20,023 nt of DNA. Source: Ignavibacteriales bacterium (GTDB lineage Bacteria > Bacteroidota > Ignavibacteria > UBA10030 > UBA6906). This document shows, in pieces, positions 1,186-11,874 of this stretch. The stretch covers positions 1 to 20,023 of the forward strand of contig JBBIRR010000060.1 in assembly GCA_037441705.1 (NCBI GenBank). The letters run 5' to 3'. Under the pieces are notes generated by a model. The model searched no databases and was not told the DNA's origin. It worked only from the letters and a program-made list of their open reading frames with translations. The number at the start of each line of letters is the position of its first letter. The stretch's first letter is position 1. A program made the translations under genes and the position numbers.

Positions 1186-1523
1186 AAAGTCCCATCACCA
1201 CGCACGTCCTTGATCTCTCGCTCGGCAAGCCCGCGGCAGGACTCGTCGTTCGGCTGGAGAAATTCTCCGGCGGCGCCTGGCTGCCCGTTGCCGAAGCCGT
1301 TACCGATAGCGACGGTCGCATCATGACCTTTCTCTCTCCCGATCAATCTCTCTCGGACAATCCTTATCGCCTTACGTTTCAGACGGGAGAGTATTTCGCG
1401 TCGACACGACGAGAAGCTTTCTACCCTAAGGTGTCGGTGGAGTTTCTTGCTGCCGAAGGCGAGCACTATCACATCCCTTTGCTGCTCAGTCCGTTCGGGT
1501 ACACCACCTATCGGGGGAGTTGA
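1182..1523 (+). CDS. uraH: 5-hydroxyisourate hydrolase (transthyretin-like), cytoplasmic type
   Basis: ITTHVLD...GKPAAG N-terminal motif, TDSDGR, and HYHIPLLLSPFGYTTYRGS with the diagnostic C-terminal YRGS. Start moved to ATG 1182 (RBS AAGGAGG at 1171-1177, ATGA overlap). Confidence 0.95.
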   Translation: MKSPITTHVLDLSLGKPAAGLVVRLEKFSGGAWLPVAEAVTDSDGRIMTFLSPDQSLSDNPYRLTFQTGEYFASTRREAFYPKVSVEFLAAEGEHYHIPLLLSPFGYTTYRGS

Positions 1524-1563
1524 GGCAAGCCTGTCCTTTACGGCTGAGAGCCGCCTTCCTCGA

Positions 1564-1583
1564 AATCACATCATGATGTGATT
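1564..1583. promoter_or_regulatory. Perfect 20-bp palindrome, putative transcription-factor operator
   Basis: AATCACATCA|TGATGTGATT, intergenic, abutting and overlapping a predicted -35. Confidence 0.65.
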
Positions 1584-1610
1584 GAGCTACGATTTCCATC
1601 AGGGTATCTT
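1582..1610 (+). promoter_or_regulatory. Putative sigma70-type promoter of the ABM-like gene
   Basis: TTGAGC-N17-TATCTT, 33 nt upstream of ATG 1644. Confidence 0.5.
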
Positions 1611-1643
1611 TGTAGCGTTCATCAACAACTCCGGAGATACTCG

Positions 1644-1919
1644 ATGGCAATTCTTCTCACGACAAAGGTCAAAGGACAGACCGCAGAAGGCTATGACCAA
1701 GTTTCCGTGTTTCTCCATGAGGTTATCCGAAAGTCACCAGGATTCATCCTGCATTGTGCGTATTCATCGGAAGAAGGTTGGAGTGTGTTGGAAGTCTGGA
1801 ATTCCAAGGCAGAAGCAGATCAGTTTTTTGCAAAACATGTTGCACCTAATCTTCCCAAAGGCATTGTACCCAAACGTTCATATCAAGAGTTACATAGTGT
1901 TGTTACACCACCACTGTAG
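1644..1919 (+). CDS. Small (91 aa) dimeric alpha/beta-barrel protein (ABM/antibiotic biosynthesis monooxygenase-like)
   Basis: PGFILH...WSVLEVWNSKAEADQF pattern typical of ABM-like barrels. GGAG RBS at 1633-1636 supports ATG 1644 over GTG 1578. Confidence 0.7.
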   Translation: MAILLTTKVKGQTAEGYDQVSVFLHEVIRKSPGFILHCAYSSEEGWSVLEVWNSKAEADQFFAKHVAPNLPKGIVPKRSYQELHSVVTPPL

Positions 1920-1925
1920 AATTAC

Positions 1926-1946
1926 AGGGAGACAATCTCCCTTTCT
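1926..1946 (+). terminator. Hairpin, possible intrinsic terminator 1
   Basis: AGGGAGA-CAA-TCTCCCT followed by TTCT, 6 nt after the stop codon. Confidence 0.45.
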
Positions 1947-1956
1947 AGCTAGGTGA

Positions 1957-1981
1957 ACCGTTCAGGCGGTCGTTTTTCTTT
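1957..1981 (+). terminator. Possible intrinsic terminator 2
   Basis: ACCGT-TCAG-GCGGT stem-loop (one G-U pair) followed by CGTTTTTCTTT. Confidence 0.45.
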
Positions 1982-2134
1982 GCAAACCAAATTCACGTAA
2001 CAGACAGCACTACGATGTTCGCTCCCTTGAAATGGCTGGAATCAAGCAGTGACCGGCCGAGATCGGGAACTTTCTCGCGGGTTGGATCATCAATTGGGTA
2101 GATCGAAAAGGGTAGGTACTTACAGGAGTCTGTG

Positions 2135-2551
2135 ATGAAGCGGATCATGTTCATGCTGGCGATGGTGTTCGGCTGCGTTTTCTTCGCCGGTGCACAGGGT
2201 GATTCGTACAAAGTCGTTTTCGACTTGACGAGCCGTGACAGCCTTGCCCAGAAGGCGGTCGTGCGGTGGATCAAGGAGATCATCGCCACACATCCACAGG
2301 CGCAGTTAGAAGTCGTCATGTACGGCAAAGGCTTCGAGTTAGTGATGCCGGAGAAGTCTGCGGCAATTGCCGACGTTCGAGATGCGGCAAAGAATCCCAA
2401 CGTGTCGTTCACCGTTTGTGCTATGGCGTTGAAGAGCAACAAGGTCGAGCGCAGCGCGCTGTTGAGCGAAGTGAAAACCGTTCCCGACGGCATTTACGAA
2501 ATCATCACGAAGCAACGGGAAGGGTGGGGCTACATCAAAGTTGCTCACTAA
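2135..2551 (+). CDS. Exported DsrE/DsrF-like family protein (putative sulfur-relay protein)
   Basis: Sec signal MKRIMFMLAMVFGCVFFAGAQG. DsrE-type elements KVVFDL, LEVVMYGKGFEL, FTVCAMAL (conserved Cys) and VPDGIYEIITKQREGWGYIK. RBS AGGAG at 2124-2128; GTG 2132 is an alternative start. Confidence 0.85.
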   Translation: MKRIMFMLAMVFGCVFFAGAQGDSYKVVFDLTSRDSLAQKAVVRWIKEIIATHPQAQLEVVMYGKGFELVMPEKSAAIADVRDAAKNPNVSFTVCAMALKSNKVERSALLSEVKTVPDGIYEIITKQREGWGYIKVAH

Positions 2552-2588
2552 ATCCATCACACGTTAACCACTAAGGAGGATCTCCCCC

Positions 2589-3266
2589 ATGCTCGACCTG
2601 ACCGCAACCCGTCGAAGTTTTCTCGGCAGTCTGGCTGCAACTGCTGCAGCAGGTGTCGCAGGACTCAGTCTGCCCGAGCAGCTCATGGCTCAGCAGATGA
2701 CGAAGGCTTCATCCGACCCGACGTTTGATAAGTGGATTGCCAAAATTCGAGGCAAGCACAAGCAGGTGTTCGATGCCCCGAGCATCAACGGCGGGCTGCC
2801 GCTCGCGTGGGCGCGTGTGTTTGTCATGACGAATGAGATGGTGGGAACGCCTGCAAAGGACGTTTCCGCAGTTCTCATCCTGCGTCACGATGCCATTCCC
2901 ATCGGCATGCATAACGAGGTGTGGCAGAAGTACAAGTTCAGCGAAGCTTTCAAGCCCGTGCACGCCATGACGAAGCAGCTCATCACCAACAACATTTTCT
3001 GGAAGCCGAAAGAAGGTGATTTGCCTCTGCCCGGCATGGCACTGAACGAACTTCTCGACGCGGGAGTGATGGTTGGCTTGTGCGACATGGCCCTGACGGT
3101 GAGCAGCGGTGCGTTTGCGAAAGACATGAATATGGACGCCGCCGCCGTCAAGAAAGAATGGGTTGACAGCGTTTTCCCGGGAATTCAGATTGTCCCATCG
3201 GGTGTTCTTGCGATCAACCGCGCACAGGAGAAAGGCTGCACGTACTGCTACGCAGGTGAAGGATAG
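2589..3266 (+). CDS. Tat-exported protein with DsrE-like C-terminal region
   Basis: Twin-arginine motif TRRSFLG plus hydrophobic stretch. HKQVFD, VGLCDMAL and VPSGVLAINRAQEKGCTY parallel the upstream DsrE protein. RBS AAGGAGG. Confidence 0.75.
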   Translation: MLDLTATRRSFLGSLAATAAAGVAGLSLPEQLMAQQMTKASSDPTFDKWIAKIRGKHKQVFDAPSINGGLPLAWARVFVMTNEMVGTPAKDVSAVLILRHDAIPIGMHNEVWQKYKFSEAFKPVHAMTKQLITNNIFWKPKEGDLPLPGMALNELLDAGVMVGLCDMALTVSSGAFAKDMNMDAAAVKKEWVDSVFPGIQIVPSGVLAINRAQEKGCTYCYAGEG

Positions 3267-3331
3267 TTTATCTCTTCAAGGATCCCTATCTCACAAATGT
3301 TAAGCATTGTATCGAAAGGAGGGTGGCCTGT

Positions 3332-3802
3332 ATGCGTCACTCAAAGATGCTGTATGCGATTCTGACGATTCTGCTTCTGGGGATGGGCACATCACTGCGT
3401 GCTCAAGAAGCCCCCAAAGGCGAGAAGTCACTCTACGAGCGACTCGGAGGAGCAGGCGCCATTGCGGTTGTGGTGGATGACTTCATTGATCGCATCTGGG
3501 TCAACAAGGTTCTCAACGCCAATCCGAAAAACAAAAAAGCGATGGGCGTGAAGAAGCCTGCTCTGAAGTATCTTGCCACGGAACTGGTTTGCCAGGTAAC
3601 CGGCGGCCCGCAGAAATACAGCGGGCGACCGATCAAGGATGTGCATGCAAAGCTCAACATCAGCGAGAAGGAGTGGGACGCGATGGTGGTGGATTTCAAA
3701 ACCACGCTGGACAAATTCAAAGTGCCGATGAAGGAGCAGGAAGAACTCCTGGCTATTGTCGGCAGCAGCAAAGGCGATATCGTGACGGTGGCAAGCAAGT
3801 AG
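3332..3802 (+). CDS. Group I truncated (2/2) hemoglobin with N-terminal signal peptide
   Basis: SLYERLGG, VVDDF, TGGPQKYSGR and proximal His in DVHAKLNI. Signal peptide ...ILTILLLGMGTSLRA|QE. RBS AAGGAGG at 3316-3322 favours ATG 3332. Confidence 0.88.
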   Translation: MRHSKMLYAILTILLLGMGTSLRAQEAPKGEKSLYERLGGAGAIAVVVDDFIDRIWVNKVLNANPKNKKAMGVKKPALKYLATELVCQVTGGPQKYSGRPIKDVHAKLNISEKEWDAMVVDFKTTLDKFKVPMKEQEELLAIVGSSKGDIVTVASK

Positions 3803-3805
3803 AGG

Positions 3806-4792
3806 ATGATGATAGTCCGGCGTCAGCAAGCGAACGTAATTCTCTCTTCTCCAAATTTCTTCAGCTCATACCTACGAAGTCTCGCGCTTGTCCTTCTGGT
3901 GATGAGCCTCGGCATCTTTGCTCCCGACGTCGAGGCTCAATCCCGTTCACGCACTCCTTCTCGCGTCACGTTGATTCCAGCTTCTTCAACCATGACGACG
4001 GCGTGGGACATCCCGATGAACCCACTCGCCGATTCAACACTCCCGCCGTCTCCACTGACGGCCCAGATTCGGTGGGGATTCAAGCTCTTCATGAACACGC
4101 CGGAAGAGGCGGCGCGGTTCTCTCCCAACAAACTCTCGTGCAACAACTGTCATTTGAATGCCGGACAGAAAGAGAAAGCGATGCCCCTCGTCGGCATTGC
4201 CGCAATCTACCCTGAGTACAACAAGCGCGAGGGGCGGCTGTTCAGTCTCGAAGATCGTATTGTGGGATGTTTCAGACGCAGCATGGGGGCGGTGCGCGGC
4301 GATGCGATCCCCGAAAATCATTCTCCGGAAGTGCTTGCCATCTCCGCCTATCTTGCGTGGCTTTCACGCGGGTCTCCTGTCGGTAAGAGTCCTGCCTGGC
4401 GCGGACACAATGTGATCCCTTCTCACAAGTTGCTTCCCCTCGAGCGGCTCGATGCCCGGCGGGGAGAGGAACTGTTCAAGGAGAAGTGCACGAACTGCCA
4501 CGGCCAGGATGGGCAAGGAGTTCAGATTGGAGATAAGAAAGCCGGACCCTTGTGGGGCCCCGATTCGTGGAACGACGGCGCAGGTGCAGCTCGAGTGTAC
4601 ACGCTGGCGGGCATGATACGCCATGCAATGCCGTACCTCGATCCCGGTTCGCTCACCGATGAGGAGGCGCAACACATTGCTGCGTTCATCTGCTCGCAGT
4701 CACGTCCGGAGTATCCTCACAAGTCGCTTGACTATCGTGTCGAGCCTCTGCCGCCTGACGCGGTGTACTACGGAAAACGAAAACAGGACTAA
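3806..4792 (+). CDS. tsdA: Diheme c-type cytochrome, thiosulfate dehydrogenase/tetrathionate reductase TsdA family
   Basis: Two CxxCH motifs (CNNCH, CTNCH), LEDRIVGCFRRSM with the TsdA active-site/heme-ligating Cys, PLWGPDSWNDGAG, and distal Met in AMP. Hydrophobic export signal near the N-terminus; exact start uncertain. Confidence 0.8.
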   Translation: MMIVRRQQANVILSSPNFFSSYLRSLALVLLVMSLGIFAPDVEAQSRSRTPSRVTLIPASSTMTTAWDIPMNPLADSTLPPSPLTAQIRWGFKLFMNTPEEAARFSPNKLSCNNCHLNAGQKEKAMPLVGIAAIYPEYNKREGRLFSLEDRIVGCFRRSMGAVRGDAIPENHSPEVLAISAYLAWLSRGSPVGKSPAWRGHNVIPSHKLLPLERLDARRGEELFKEKCTNCHGQDGQGVQIGDKKAGPLWGPDSWNDGAGAARVYTLAGMIRHAMPYLDPGSLTDEEAQHIAAFICSQSRPEYPHKSLDYRVEPLPPDAVYYGKRKQD

Positions 4793-7125
4793 GTCGCCAC
4801 GGCGTGCCGTTCTGCAACCCGCTCGCGGCGATGCCGCCGCAGCTTCTCTGCTGCAAGAACGATCACTTCATTCGTTGCAGGCAAAGAAAACTCCGGCTCG
4901 ATTTCGTGATCGGCTGATGCAGAGACGGCATCTTTGATTGCGAGCCAGGTCGAGAGTGCGAGCATCAACGGTGGTTCGGCAACGGCTTTGCTCTTGCGGA
5001 TGGTGTTGGGGTTCGGAACATTCTCCAGAAGTCGCACGCGGAAGTCACGCGGAATATCCCGCACGGTTGGAATCTTGTACGTATCGGGTGAGTGCGTCAT
5101 CAGGCGTCCCTTCTCGTCCCACTTGATCTCTTCCGTCGTCACCCAGCCGTTGCCTTGAATGTAGCCTCCCTCGACTTGCCCGATATCGATCTGAGGATTC
5201 AGCGAGTCGCCTACATCGTGAAGAATGTCGGTCCGCACAATGGTGTGATGCCCGGTGAGGAGATCGACCAGTACTTCCGTGCACGCCATCCCGAACGCGT
5301 AGTAGTGGAACGGCTTGCCCCATCCTTTCTGCTTATCCCACCCGATGTTCGGCGTGCGGTAGAAACCGGTAGCGCTCAAACTCACCTGCCGCAGATGCAT
5401 CAACGGCATTGCTTCGGCGAAGCCGATCGTACGATCGGGATGCTCGCTGTCGAAGATCGTATCGTTCTGGAAAATGATTGCTTCGGCGCGCGTCGGTTCC
5501 TGCGGGTGCTGCTCGTTGAAGTATGCAGCGAGTTCGGCGGCGATGCGTGCCTTGAGTGTGTCCACGGCATTCTTCACCGCCATTCCGTTCAGATCGGCGC
5601 CGGCAGATGCTGCGGTAGCGGATGTGTTCGGCACTTTGGACGTGTTGGTTGCGTTGACTTTGACGCGGCTGAGGCTCACGCCGAATTCTGCGGCGGCGAC
5701 CTGCTGCATCTTGGTGTGCAGCCCCTGTCCCATTTCTGTGCCGCCGTGGTTGACGAGGATGGTTCCATCTTTGTACACGTTCACCAGCGCCCCCGCCTGA
5801 TTGAGGAAGGAGGTGGTGAAGGAGATGCCGAACTTCACCGGCGTCAGGGCGATACCTTTCTTGACGAATTCATGCGATGCGTTGAACTCCGCAGCCGCCG
5901 CTCTTCTACGATGGTAGTCCGAAGACGCGACGAGTTCATCGTAGATGCGATAAAGCCGGTTATGCTCGACGGTCTGGCCGTAGTGCGTGATGTTCCGTGA
6001 TTCGACGCCATAGAAATTCCTGTAACGAACCTCGAGCGGATCTTTCTTGAGAAAGCGAGCAATTCGATCCATTACCGTTTCGATGACGGCCATGCCCTGC
6101 GGTCCGCCGAAGCCGCGGAAGGCAGTATTGGAGGGGAGATTGGTCTTCCAGACGCGCGCATTCACATGAACGTTCGGGATGTAGTAAGCGTTGTCGACAT
6201 GCAGCATGGCGCGTTCCATGATGGCGAAGGAAAGATCGGTTGCGCAACCGCCGTCGCTGTTGAGTTCGAATGTTGCGGCAAGAAGCCTTCCCTCGTCATC
6301 GAACCCCACGTCATAGCGGGAGAGAAAGCGGTGACGCTTGCCGGTCATGATCATGTCGTCGTCGCGGAAGAGCCGAATCTTGACGGGCCTGCGCGTCGCG
6401 TGACAGAGCAACGCGGTCCAGCAGGCAGTGTGATTGGCCTGGGTTTCCTTTCCGCCGAACGCGCCGCCCATGCGACGGACCTCGACCACGACGTCATGTT
6501 TCTTGATGCCGAGAAGCTCGGCAATGAGAGCCTGCGTTTCCGAAGGATGTTGTGTTGAGGAGAAGACGTTGATTTCGTTTCCCTCTCCGGGTATGCACAA
6601 ACACACCTGCGATTCGAGGTACCAATGCTCTTGAGCCCCGGTGCGAAGCTCTCCTTGCAAGCGATGCGGTGCCGAACGAAGCGCCTCGTCGGGATCGCCG
6701 CGCTGCATCATACGCGGCGGGCCTAACAGACTGTTCTTTGCCATCGCCTGTTCGATCGTGAGGATGGGTTCGAGGGGTTCGAACGCGACCTGAATTCTGC
6801 GTTCAGCTTCGCGCGCTTGTGCTCCGGTCTCCGCCGCGATCAGGAACATCGCCTGCCCGACGCACACGACCTCGTGTTCCGCGAGGCACGGTTCATCCTT
6901 GACCACCGGACCCATTTGGTTGGCGCCGGGAATATCTCGGAACGAAAGCACGGCATGCACGCCCGGCACCTTGCGCGCCTCGGAAAGATCGAACGACACA
7001 ATGCGCGCGTGTGCGTGAGGAGAGTACACAACGCGACCGACGAGCAGCCGGTCGTTGACGGGAATATCGTCAACATAGACCGCCTCGCCGGTGACGTGCT
7101 TCTCGGCAGACTCGTGGGGGATCAT
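4789..7125 (-). CDS. xdhB: Xanthine dehydrogenase molybdopterin-binding subunit
   Basis: PHESAEKHVTGEAVYVDD, QEHWYLE, RRMGGAFGGKETQ, SNTAFRGFGGPQG, GGTEMGQGLHTK, TAASAG and KAVAEPP (catalytic Glu). Confidence 0.96.
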   Translation of the reverse strand: MIPHESAEKHVTGEAVYVDDIPVNDRLLVGRVVYSPHAHARIVSFDLSEARKVPGVHAVLSFRDIPGANQMGPVVKDEPCLAEHEVVCVGQAMFLIAAETGAQAREAERRIQVAFEPLEPILTIEQAMAKNSLLGPPRMMQRGDPDEALRSAPHRLQGELRTGAQEHWYLESQVCLCIPGEGNEINVFSSTQHPSETQALIAELLGIKKHDVVVEVRRMGGAFGGKETQANHTACWTALLCHATRRPVKIRLFRDDDMIMTGKRHRFLSRYDVGFDDEGRLLAATFELNSDGGCATDLSFAIMERAMLHVDNAYYIPNVHVNARVWKTNLPSNTAFRGFGGPQGMAVIETVMDRIARFLKKDPLEVRYRNFYGVESRNITHYGQTVEHNRLYRIYDELVASSDYHRRRAAAAEFNASHEFVKKGIALTPVKFGISFTTSFLNQAGALVNVYKDGTILVNHGGTEMGQGLHTKMQQVAAAEFGVSLSRVKVNATNTSKVPNTSATAASAGADLNGMAVKNAVDTLKARIAAELAAYFNEQHPQEPTRAEAIIFQNDTIFDSEHPDRTIGFAEAMPLMHLRQVSLSATGFYRTPNIGWDKQKGWGKPFHYYAFGMACTEVLVDLLTGHHTIVRTDILHDVGDSLNPQIDIGQVEGGYIQGNGWVTTEEIKWDEKGRLMTHSPDTYKIPTVRDIPRDFRVRLLENVPNPNTIRKSKAVAEPPLMLALSTWLAIKDAVSASADHEIEPEFSLPATNEVIVLAAEKLRRHRRERVAERHAVAT

Positions 7126-9287: not shown

Positions 9288-10763
9288 TCATCCGTGAGGC
9301 TCAACGCGCGTCCGTTCGTGCTTCGCTCCATCAAATCCCTGCTGCGCGTCACTCCAGAATTTCAGGAGTAGATTTCGTGCGGCGACCCGCCGAAACTCGG
9401 CACTGCCCCGAGCATCCGTAATCGGCGTGAAGTCGCCGTCGATCACGTCCATCGCTTGCTCTACAAGCTCTCGCGACCAGAAACGTCCGAGCAGAAAACG
9501 TTCGGCGCGGCTTGCGCGTTGAACTTTCTCTGCCATGCCCCCGTATGCCAGGACGACATCATTCACTCTTCCTTCTCCATCAAGTTCCAGTCGGAATCCT
9601 GCGCTTACGGTTGAGATGTCGAGGTCTCTTCGTTTCGAGACCTTGTACCATCGAATCAGCACGTGCGGTTCCGGCTTTGGAAGCACGACGGCCGTGATCA
9701 GTTCATCCGGTTCGCGGATGGTTGTGCGATAGCCGATGACAAATTCGTCGAGAGAAACCTCGCGCGTTCGCGTTGTATTCTGAAGGACAACTCGTGCCCG
9801 ATGGGGGATAAGGGCGGACAGCGTATCGCCGATGGGGGAGGCGGATCCAAGGTTGCCGCCAAGGGTCGCAAGATTGCGTATCTGCAGTGAACCGAAGACC
9901 TCCAGCGTTTGCGCAAGCGCGGGAAAGTCACGCGCAACATCTCGTTGCACATCGCTGAGAACGACGCCGGCCCCGATGCGAAGAGCCGTGCCGTTATCTT
10001 CGATCCTTTTCAACTCATCAACCAGCGAGAGATCCAGAACGATCGGCAGCAGCTCGTGGCCCTTCGTTACGCGGAGGGCAACGTCCGTTGCCCCGCACAC
10101 GACGACTGCATCCGGATGCTCGCGCTTGAATGCGAGTGCCTCCTGCACTGTTGTCGGCTGAACATACAGTTGCGCGGCGGTGTGCACACGGCCGGACTCG
10201 CGGGAGATCGACCGCAGGAGTCGTGTGATCTCTTCTTCGGTGGGGGAAAGCTCATCAATACCGTGATGAACACACGCGTGTGCTGCCGCCTCCACGATGG
10301 GCCTGTATCCTGTGCAGCGACACAAGTTGCCGGTGAGGGCATCGTCAATCGTCTGCCGATCCGGCTGATGGTGATTCTTGTAGAGCGCAAACAGCGACAT
10401 GATGATGCCCGGCGTGCAATACCCGCATTGACTGCCGCCGGACTCGACCATCGCCTGCTGCACAGGATGCAGCTGCCCTGCCTTCAGATTCTCAACGGTG
10501 ATGACCTGCTTACCGTGAACCATCGGCAGGAAGACAAGGCACGAATCAACAGCTCGATATCGCAGCTTGTTCTCCTGCCCGGGTTCGGCCAGCACAACGG
10601 TACAGGCACCGCAATCGCCTTCTGCGCATCCCTCCTTCACGCCTGTGTGTGCAGGTAAGCTACGCAAATAATTTAGAAGTGTTGTGGTGGGCGTAACAGA
10701 ATTGCCGGGGAAGCTTTCGGTGACAACACGACCATCAAGAACGAATGATACTGACGAACGCAT
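9288..10763 (-). CDS. xdhA: Xanthine dehydrogenase small subunit (2x[2Fe-2S] plus FAD)
   Basis: GVKEGCAEGDCGACTV, GSQCGYCTPG, GNLCRCTGYRPI, QIRNLATLGGNLGSASPIGD and YKVSKRRDLDIS. RBS CAGGAG upstream of ATG 10763. Confidence 0.95.
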   Translation of the reverse strand: MRSSVSFVLDGRVVTESFPGNSVTPTTTLLNYLRSLPAHTGVKEGCAEGDCGACTVVLAEPGQENKLRYRAVDSCLVFLPMVHGKQVITVENLKAGQLHPVQQAMVESGGSQCGYCTPGIIMSLFALYKNHHQPDRQTIDDALTGNLCRCTGYRPIVEAAAHACVHHGIDELSPTEEEITRLLRSISRESGRVHTAAQLYVQPTTVQEALAFKREHPDAVVVCGATDVALRVTKGHELLPIVLDLSLVDELKRIEDNGTALRIGAGVVLSDVQRDVARDFPALAQTLEVFGSLQIRNLATLGGNLGSASPIGDTLSALIPHRARVVLQNTTRTREVSLDEFVIGYRTTIREPDELITAVVLPKPEPHVLIRWYKVSKRRDLDISTVSAGFRLELDGEGRVNDVVLAYGGMAEKVQRASRAERFLLGRFWSRELVEQAMDVIDGDFTPITDARGSAEFRRVAARNLLLKFWSDAQQGFDGAKHERTRVEPHG

Positions 10764-10827
10764 CGCTACTCCTGTTGGGAAGGATGTTCGCGCGTAGTTC
10801 GAGGAGGGATTTCTCGAATTCTGATGG

Positions 10828-10856
10828 AAACTAACCAAAATCATCGTTACTATCAA
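10828..10856 (-). promoter_or_regulatory. Putative sigma70-type promoter for the xdhA operon
   Basis: Minus strand TTGATA-N17-TAGTTT in the AT-rich divergent intergenic region. Confidence 0.55.
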
Positions 10857-10905
10857 ATAAGACGAACCGTGATGGGTGACGGACGTTCCCTACAGCAGTG
10901 TGTCC

Positions 10906-11874
10906 ATGCAAAGAGAAGTTTGTGAGTTCATACACGCGCATCTCCAACGGCACGAACCCGTGACGCTTGTAGCCGTTGTCGAGAGCCACGGGGCTTCGCC
11001 GGGCAGGGCGGGATTTGCCATGGCGGTGAGTGCTTCGGGCAAACATGCCGGGACGATTGGCGGAGGCGTCATGGAAATGCAGTGGACGGAGCGGGCGATC
11101 GCCGCAGCACGGGCAGCGCAGCCCGGAGCTTCGTTCGTCAAGAAACTCTTTCACTCACGCGATACGCAGTTCGAACCCTCAGGACTGATCTGCTCGGGTT
11201 GGCAAACACTGCTGCTGAAGCGTTTGGACGAGGATGCGCTGCCGGTTGTGGCATCCATCCGCGAAACATTCCACCGGCACGAATGCGGCCGAATCCGGAT
11301 AACGCCTACGGAGTTTACCTTCGCGGCGAATCAGCGCGGCCCGCAGGACTCGACCTTCGCCTATACGGACGAACAGCACTGGGTCTATGAGCAGGCTGTT
11401 GGTGTCCTGGATACGGTGTATGTTGTCGGCAGCGGGCATGTGGGCCTGGCCTTGTGCCGCGTGCTGGCGACGCTGGATGTCCGTGTTGTTGTGTTTGATG
11501 ATCGGCCGGATGTGGAGACGTTCGTCAAGAATTCTTCTGCCCATCAGAAAATCCTCTGCGCGTACGGTGAAGTGGGAGGATGGATACAGGGAAACGACCG
11601 TGAGTACGTCGCTGTCGTAACGGCGGGCTACAAAAGCGATGAAGCGGCGTTGCAATCTCTTGTGAACAAGCAAGTGAGATATATTGGCTTGATGGGAAGT
11701 CCGGCGAAGACGATGCAAATCTTCAACGACCTTCGGGCTGAAGGTATTGGTGAGGACTTCCTGAACCGCATTCACGCGCCCATCGGCCTCCCGATTGCGA
11801 GTCATACCCCGGCAGAAATCGCCGTCAGCATTGCTGCCGAGATCATTCAGATAAAAAACCGCGCGCCTGCATGA
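10906..11874 (+). CDS. xdhC: XdhC/CoxI family molybdenum cofactor insertion accessory protein
   Basis: VVESHGASPGRAGFAM, GTIGGG, SGLICSG, Rossmann-like VVGSGHVG, YIGLMGS and IHAPIGLPIASHTPAEIAVSIAAEII. Start is ATG 10906 or GTG 10876. Confidence 0.92.
   Translation: MQREVCEFIHAHLQRHEPVTLVAVVESHGASPGRAGFAMAVSASGKHAGTIGGGVMEMQWTERAIAAARAAQPGASFVKKLFHSRDTQFEPSGLICSGWQTLLLKRLDEDALPVVASIRETFHRHECGRIRITPTEFTFAANQRGPQDSTFAYTDEQHWVYEQAVGVLDTVYVVGSGHVGLALCRVLATLDVRVVVFDDRPDVETFVKNSSAHQKILCAYGEVGGWIQGNDREYVAVVTAGYKSDEAALQSLVNKQVRYIGLMGSPAKTMQIFNDLRAEGIGEDFLNRIHAPIGLPIASHTPAEIAVSIAAEIIQIKNRAPA

Follow-up and report, generated by a model that had tools for sequence, protein, structure and literature searches.

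A conserved gene pair for a Tat-exported DsrE-like protein and a TsdA-type cytochrome, beside a strain-variable exported globin, in an Ignavibacteriales genome

Do four neighbouring genes for exported proteins in an Ignavibacteriales bacterium make up one periplasmic sulfur module, and which of them belong together? The genes lie in a stretch of 20,023 nucleotides (contig JBBIRR010000060.1 of assembly GCA_037441705.1), referred to here as the window, and encode in order a small DsrE-like protein (DsrE139), a second DsrE-like protein with a twin-arginine translocation (Tat) signal (TatDsrE), a truncated globin and a TsdA-type diheme cytochrome c. The initial annotation had proposed that all four form an undescribed periplasmic sulfur module. 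One part of that proposal stands, as TatDsrE and TsdA recur side by side in many genomes, while the globin is not among the conserved genes. What is conserved is the pairing of TatDsrE with TsdA, and the interest of the locus lies in this pair and not in the combination with a globin.

The four open reading frames (ORFs) all stand on the + strand, at 2132/2135–2551 (138–139 amino acids, aa), 2589–3266 (225 aa), 3323/3332–3802 (156–159 aa) and 3806–4792 (328 aa), and are separated by 37, 65 and 3 nt, so that the close spacing and common orientation described initially are confirmed. Each of the first three is preceded by an AGGAG-like site, and the globin start is placed at the ATG at 3332, which is preferred over the GTG at 3323. 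The predicted order of export signals, Sec, Tat, Sec and Sec, was likewise recovered: the Tat signal of TatDsrE is matched by TIGR01409 (20.8 bits versus a cut-off of 16.7; motif TRRSFLG), and the Sec-type signals were judged by eye, reading MKRIMFMLAMVFGCVFFAGA/QG in DsrE139, MRHSKMLYAILTILLLGMGTSLRA/QE in the globin and, after a long n-region, LALVLLVMSLGIFAPDVEA/QS in TsdA. The gene identities given in the initial annotation agree with the profile and structure matches described below (PF02635 and 1l1s, PF01152, PF21342 and 4wq7), and profile scans of the window proteins found no sox, dsr or sqr genes in the window, as had been stated.

The evidence for the pair comes from two sets of genomes. 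Among 41 genomes related to the one that carries the window, TatDsrE is present in 15 and a strong TsdA match in 14; the match occurs in 14 of the 15 TatDsrE-positive genomes and in none of the 26 TatDsrE-negative ones, and the fifteenth positive genome is 84% complete and has its TatDsrE on a 2.3-kb contig. Wherever both genes were fetched they are adjacent (13/13 loci), and in the nearest species among the relatives, G003, tsdA directly follows tatDsrE, with TatDsrE 88% and TsdA about 80–84% identical to the proteins of the window. A wider scan of one genome per species, using a profile from a 21-row alignment, yielded 80 TatDsrE loci, 62 of which have a TsdA-type gene next to TatDsrE, with a gap between the high-scoring segment pairs of at most 300 nt in 57 of these 62. 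The orientation of the pair varies, being convergent in 34 cases, TatDsrE-then-TsdA in 17 and TsdA-then-TatDsrE in 11. The Cys ligand, both CxxCH motifs and the Met are kept in 61 of the 62 neighbouring cytochromes, the remaining one being cut by a contig end. Carriers include Ignavibacteria-type and other Bacteroidota, Chitinophagales, Sphingobacteriales such as Solitalea, Gemmatimonadales, where 11 of 14 loci are paired, and one metagenome-assembled genome (MAG) labelled Chlorobiaceae. The check for co-occurrence of all four genes that accompanied the initial annotation thus gives a divided answer, with TatDsrE and TsdA conserved together and the globin linked to TsdA or DsrE genes at 0 of 184 other loci in total.

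A prediction of the complex between TsdA (residues 60–328, 56-row alignment), two hemes and TatDsrE (residues 40–225, 61-row alignment) scored 0.00 against a mark of 0.32, a result to which we attach no weight either way. At one relative's locus (L064, G015:C143), an RnfC/Nuo51-like gene and a gene for a shell protein with a bacterial microcompartment (BMC) domain lie between tsdA and tatDsrE (4107–6036).

TatDsrE (2589–3266, + strand) belongs to no Pfam family at E ≤ 0.01, is not matched by the PF02635 profile, and finds nothing beyond its signal peptide in a sequence search of the PDB. Its AlphaFold2 (AF2) model is confident, with a mean predicted local distance difference test (pLDDT) score of 91.3, and the top Foldseek matches, with probabilities of 0.98–1.00, are 2pd2, 1l1s, 3pnx, 3mc3 and 2hy5, that is ST0148, MTH1491, the DsrE protein Swol_2425, a DsrE/F-like protein of Sulfolobus and DsrEFH. 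Profile-to-profile alignment with hhalign relates the TatDsrE family to the DsrE139 family at 96.5% probability (E 9e-10) and places Cys165 of TatDsrE on the cysteine of DsrE139, and the extra length of TatDsrE is accounted for by two insertions, at roughly residues 104–150 and 170–190 in the profile comparison. With a modelled DsrE fold and a cysteine at the equivalent position, TatDsrE is, as judged from model and profiles, a DsrE-fold protein and a paralogue of DsrE139, in line with the DsrE-like nature assigned to it at the outset. The twin arginines, D62 and C165 are invariant in all 61 aligned TatDsrE sequences, and two C-terminal cysteines of the family are less constant, occurring in 43 and 28 of the 61. 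At E ≤ 0.001 the family comprises 927 cluster representatives, some members of which are labelled DsrE/DsrF family by the Joint Genome Institute (JGI). The ESM Atlas places TatDsrE among unnamed clusters only, the nearest named cluster being DsrE at 0.86, which we take as a lead only, and a search for fused forms of 395–2000 aa at E ≤ 1e-10 found none, which is weak evidence.

The fourth gene (3806–4792, + strand) encodes a protein with a SoxA/TsdA domain (PF21342, 58.6 bits versus a cut-off of 27) that matches TsdA of Allochromatium vinosum (4wq7) over residues 75–306 (E 6e-42). Its two heme c motifs are C112NNCH116 and C228TNCH232. Cys155, in RIVGCFRRS, aligns with RIGDCFERS of 4wq7, whose Cys96 is the distal ligand of heme 1, and Met275 aligns with the heme 2 ligand Met209. 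The protein is thus a TsdA with intact heme ligands, for which enzymatic activity is predicted. At the position of A. vinosum Lys208 the window protein has Ala274, and most of the distant neighbouring TsdAs have Asn; the TsdA of Campylobacter jejuni also does without this lysine and has Asn254 in its place, as given in the available part of PMC6879331. Because the lysine of the oxidising A. vinosum type is absent, either catalytic direction is possible. In one relative (L057, G007:C40, 6469–7572), tsdA is split into three frames by one TGA and one TAG, possibly as a pseudogene or through sequencing errors.

DsrE139 (2135–2551, + strand) accompanies the pair less regularly. The protein scores just above the cut-off of the DsrE profile PF02635 (24.5 versus 22.7 bits), carries the conserved cysteine after the beta strand (FTVCAMAL) and matches PDB 1l1s (MTH1491) at E 4e-9 with the cysteines aligned. 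Homologues stand at 3 of the 13 relatives' loci and 17 of the 80 wider loci, and all 20 homologues adjoining TatDsrE or TsdA in other genomes have both the N-terminal signal and the cysteine. Further sulfur genes occur at some of the wider loci, namely split genes of the YeeE/YedE type (Sulf_transp) at 15 of 80 and a fusion of rhodanese and metallo-beta-lactamase domains (rhodanese-dioxygenase) at 8 of 80. On contig C26 of the genome that carries the window (20575–26150, equivalent to L227 6575–12150), the genes of a Psr/Phs/Ttr-like molybdopterin oxidoreductase that has 4Fe-4S and NrfD subunits precede a pair of YeeE/YedE-type genes and a rhodanese gene; therefore this genome has further sulfur-compound metabolism outside the window. 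The best match to the SoxB profile TIGR04486 in this genome reaches 128.5 bits versus a cut-off of 550 (SoxYZ was not searched for), and two heme-copper oxidases are encoded.

The globin behaves differently from its neighbours. Homologues are found in 10 of the 41 relatives and track TsdA weakly, being present in 5 of 14 TsdA-positive and 5 of 27 TsdA-negative genomes. DsrE139, TatDsrE and TsdA are near the globin at none of 11 relatives' globin loci other than the window and at none of 80 metagenome loci (globins 52–77% identical; 26 of the contigs shorter than 2.5 kb); conversely, a globin is found at none of the 13 relatives' and none of the 80 species loci that carry TatDsrE. At the strain level, a 31.6-kb contig of run X2, which comes from another study and is about 97.5% identical to the window, has no globin and a different 5' end of tsdA: window position 3267 is joined to 3987, and 719 bases are replaced by 232. 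The window form is carried by contigs of X4 (matching 2889–3849), X5 (2989–3324 and 3479–4046) and X3 (3651–3927), and the DNA of G003 also ceases to align with the window between 3265 and 3965. The strain-variable block at 3268–3986 spans the intergenic spacer, the globin gene and tsdA codons 1–60, and looks like an exchange of a homologous segment rather than a simple insertion, since the replaced block takes in the first 60 codons of tsdA. We therefore exclude the globin from the conserved members of the proposed module; the sequence comparisons suggest a recently recombined, optional cassette that the module would not require and whose co-transcription is predicted by position only.

The globin gene itself (3332–3802, + strand) seems sound. 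Its product matches PF01152 (49.1 bits versus a cut-off of 21) and the solved group 1 truncated hemoglobins (trHbN) at E 5e-17 to 6e-16, with His105 aligned to their proximal His and with RLGG and TGGP motifs present. We compared it with a family set of 87 full-length members, the window copy included, whose N-termini resemble signal peptides ending near AQE. The proximal His and an E-helix Cys (Cys87 in the window) are invariant (87/87 each), and the distal positions are taken by apolar residues (Phe in 85 of the 87 sequences, Ile in 78, Leu in 82, Val in 78), the window globin having Ala at the last position, as do 5 of the 87 overall. Assuming the helix labels of Mycobacterium tuberculosis HbN numbering, the window protein has Ile at B10 (Ile52), Leu at E7 and Ala at E11 (Ala82); the distal His is absent, as are the polar distal residues (Tyr B10, Gln E11) of characterised trHbN. 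The AF2 model has a pLDDT of 82.1 with residues 1–25 below 50. Because the window copy agrees with a 71-row alignment at each of its 16 invariant columns and its mature part models well, the globin is probably functional.

How might TatDsrE and TsdA work together? We propose a periplasmic thiosulfate/tetrathionate module with TsdA and TatDsrE as its core, DsrE139 as a helper and the globin as an optional addition, a reading to which we assign a probability of about 0.6. TsdA would oxidise thiosulfate at the Cys-ligated heme 1, and Cys165 of TatDsrE would serve as the site at which an S-S bond is formed or tetrathionate is captured, yielding a Cys-S-thiosulfonate or a persulfide. Thiosulfate sulfur may be loaded onto the cysteine directly, in the way that SoxAX loads SoxY, or the cysteine may capture tetrathionate, as DsrE3A does. 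From TatDsrE the sulfur group could pass to DsrE139 and, in those relatives that encode them next door, onward to YeeE-type importers and a cytoplasmic rhodanese-dioxygenase. Catalysis might equally well run the other way, as a reduction of tetrathionate. Two precedents are relevant here, both taken from the portions available of the respective papers: tetrathionate converts the cysteine of DsrE3A into a Cys-S-thiosulfonate (PMC4175335), and cysteinyl thiosulfate is proposed as the common first step of SoxAX and TsdA (PMC6879331). A bolder version, in which TsdA would act as SoxAX does on SoxYZ and load thiosulfate onto Cys165 instead of merely coupling two thiosulfates, as a second carrier-protein route of periplasmic thiosulfate oxidation in Bacteroidota and Gemmatimonadota, running via DsrE139 and YeeE-type channels, with the globin recruited in this lineage as a sulfide-capturing or electron-accepting add-on, is offered as a tentative and rather unlikely possibility.

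Several observations weigh against the proposed module. Eighteen of the 80 TatDsrE loci have neither TsdA nor another cytochrome alongside; what adjoins TatDsrE there is housekeeping genes of no related function, and five of these loci offer less than 700 bp on one side. In the 34 convergent pairs the two genes are therefore not on one transcript, and because the relatives are kin, the adjacency counts overstate the independent support. The locus in the window does not have the adjoining YeeE and dioxygenase genes found in relatives, so that the downstream sulfur route proposed for relatives is less certain in this organism, and no RNA runs carrying the stretch 2100–4800 are listed. As regards the globin, the form of the locus that contains it recurs in contigs of two other studies (X4 and X5) at about 93–98% identity; since the gene is kept in two studies, 3 nt from tsdA and with its 16 invariant residues, selection for a role with TsdA is possible.

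The kinship of the genomes also bears on the question of whether the TatDsrE-TsdA neighbourhood is simply inherited gene order without functional meaning. Many of the loci do come from related MAGs, and in one genus (g1) the pair stands beside xdhB purely by descent, xdhB being adjacent in only 3 of the 80 wider loci. However, the pair persists over two phyla, in three orientations and between changing flanks, which argues for a functional link kinship notwithstanding, and among the relatives both genes are gained and lost together; we give inherited order hardly any credence. TatDsrE might also have a role other than sulfur relay. The tight linkage to TsdA and the invariant Cys165 would equally suit a maturation or repair factor that installs, trims or removes sulfur adducts on the heme-ligating cysteine of TsdA, comparable to the proteins that reactivate Sox carriers. 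The ligand Cys of TsdA forms thiosulfonate-type adducts, according to the accessible part of PMC6879331, and 47 of the 62 pairs have no YeeE or dioxygenase gene, leaving TatDsrE with TsdA alone. A relay is nevertheless better suited to the second periplasmic DsrE paralogue and the YeeE importers that many loci have, and we consider the repair role unlikely.

The remaining alternatives give the globin a central part. The pathway put forward in the initial annotation would have the exported globin bind or oxidise H2S to thiosulfate or polysulfide, the DsrE proteins relay sulfane sulfur and TsdA oxidise thiosulfate, which would make the globin a working part of the module in this lineage. It draws on the 3 nt between the globin stop and the tsdA start, on the presence of the cassette in the contigs of the two other studies (X4, X5), on Cys87, which could carry a persulfide and is invariant in 87 of 87 globins, and on the apolar distal pocket without His, such pockets disfavouring sulfheme formation in sulfide-binding hemoglobins. 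Against these stand the 184 other loci, at none of which a globin of this family accompanies TsdA or DsrE genes, the usual context of that family (an extracytoplasmic function (ECF) sigma factor, a fatty acid hydroxylase and a glycosyltransferase), the absence of the globin from both the contig of about 97.5% identity and the nearest species, G003, and the weak tracking with TsdA (5/14 versus 5/27 genomes), which together make this pathway decidedly unlikely in our judgement. The same spacing of 3 nt, along with the lack of a gene for a TsdB-type acceptor in the operon, could instead point to the globin as an electron sink for TsdA, with electrons from thiosulfate passing through the diheme cytochrome to a globin that reduces O2 or a nitrogen oxide; fusions of periplasmic cytochromes and truncated hemoglobins are proposed as alternative terminal oxidases in the available part of PMC11976967. 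Such a role meets the same lack of conserved linkage (0/184), the two heme-copper oxidases of the genome could take the electrons, and the apolar pocket would seem to offer no obvious stabilisation or activation of O2, so we regard it as very improbable.

Comparison with known systems helps to place the proposed TatDsrE-TsdA module. The partners known for TsdA comprise electron carriers, namely TsdB, and a single lipoprotein, TsdC. The cytochrome of the window shares with the TsdAs of A. vinosum (4WQ7) and C. jejuni the diheme architecture with His/Cys ligation of heme 1 and His/Met ligation of heme 2; it differs from the former in having Ala in place of Lys208, and a DsrE-fold protein, not TsdB, is the partner encoded beside it. 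As in SoxAX and SoxYZ, a Cys-ligated cytochrome of the SoxA family has as its neighbour a small exported protein whose single invariant Cys could accept thiosulfate as a thiosulfonate, but the candidate carrier here has a DsrE fold and is not SoxY, no SoxB scores above the cut-off, and loading of the cysteine is inferred. MTH1491 (1l1s) and ST0148 (2pd2), the best sequence match of DsrE139 and the best fold match of TatDsrE, respectively, with the cysteines aligned, come from archaea, are cytoplasmic and measure about 110 aa, whereas TatDsrE has a Tat signal and two insertions. The DsrE3A/TusA system of Metallosphaera cuprina likewise includes a DsrE-family protein, whose Cys reacts with tetrathionate (PMC4175335, available part); it is cytoplasmic and archaeal, in contrast to the two DsrE-like proteins here, which bear export signals and belong to the MTH1491/ST0148 branch. 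A further comparison is with the periplasmic DsrE-like sulfurtransferase of the sox operon of Methylovirgula thiovorans HY1, which is exported and goes with periplasmic thiosulfate oxidation in the available part of PMC9371685; it is linked to Sox and not to TsdA, and its likeness to TatDsrE is by description only. For the globin, the nearest parallel is the truncated hemoglobin domains of pentaheme cytochromes in cable bacteria, which are also periplasmic and next to c-type hemes (PMC11976967, available part), although those are fusions, whereas here a separate Sec-exported globin has a strain-specific linkage to a cytochrome.

In the literature searched, with subscription papers and those on TsdB and TsdC outside its scope, we found no description of a periplasmic TsdA-DsrE pair and, with subscription papers again outside the scope, none of a globin with TsdA. 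If the proposed module is correct, an exported Cys-bearing DsrE-fold neighbour would be a sulfur-carrier partner for TsdA, linking this enzyme to the logic of SoxAX and SoxYZ, and a function would be gained for the TatDsrE family, which has 927 cluster representatives and no Pfam model. Cultured strains of Solitalea, Chitinophaga and Paraflavitalea carry the pair, among them Solitalea longa HR-AV, Solitalea koreensis DSM 21342, Chitinophaga hostae 2R12 and Paraflavitalea pollutisoli H1-2-19X, and therefore the idea is directly testable. The globin cassette, for its part, is a natural presence/absence variant in near-identical strains and would allow a clean comparison for the role of the exported globin.

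The origin of the globin in the window can be traced in part. The same genome has a second exported globin (C25:35409–35825, locus L019), which is 86.7% identical to the G003 copy and vertically inherited; its context, shared with G003, consists of genes for an ECF sigma factor, a fatty acid hydroxylase, a family 2 glycosyltransferase, the globin, a PhoU-like protein, a PHO4 transporter and a tandem rhodanese, and loci L013, L017 and L018 show the same context from ECF sigma factor to tandem rhodanese. That the window globin is a recent duplicate of the C25 copy was rejected, given only 56.8% identity between the two, versus 86.7% between C25 and G003, and a separate clade with support of 0.998. 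In that clade the window globin clusters with four metagenome sequences of 61–65% identity, the best of which sits between a Kelch protein of the type IX secretion system (T9SS) and a TPR protein. The loci examined (L067–L146 and L013–L023) show that Sec-exported group I truncated globins form a large family, in which the E-helix Cys is invariant and the distal pocket fully apolar. The literature searched gave no description of free-standing exported truncated globins; periplasmic truncated hemoglobins appear in it only fused to cytochromes of cable bacteria (PMC11976967, in its available part).

The quartet is flanked by genes of purine catabolism, with a 5-hydroxyisourate (HIU) hydrolase at 1179–1523, xdhB at 4789–7125 (− strand), xdhA at 9288–10856 (− strand) and xdhC at 10876–11874; xdhB and xdhA are separated by two ORFs for membrane proteins, of which one is DUF2157. 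In the window tsdA is inverted and converges on xdhB, the two stop codons overlapping. Among the 13 loci of relatives, 4 have tsdA immediately downstream of xdhB and reading the same way, 18–140 nt away (L055:6384–9731, L057:6469–9794, L062:1832–5157 and L064:784–4088). A link between TsdA and xanthine dehydrogenase was considered and rejected, as xdhB adjoins the pair in only 3 of the 80 wider loci and XdhB has no export signal. A scan of 1500–5300 for sigma-70 promoters gave 0 sites, and the same region holds 9 terminator-like sites versus 4.1 expected, none of them in the three + strand intergenic gaps. Upstream of the quartet, a small ORF at 1644–1919 belongs to no Pfam family. A second strain-level replacement affects window positions 1655–2063, where contigs of X2 and X5 lack about 400 bases and have about 300 different ones instead, which removes this ORF in both.

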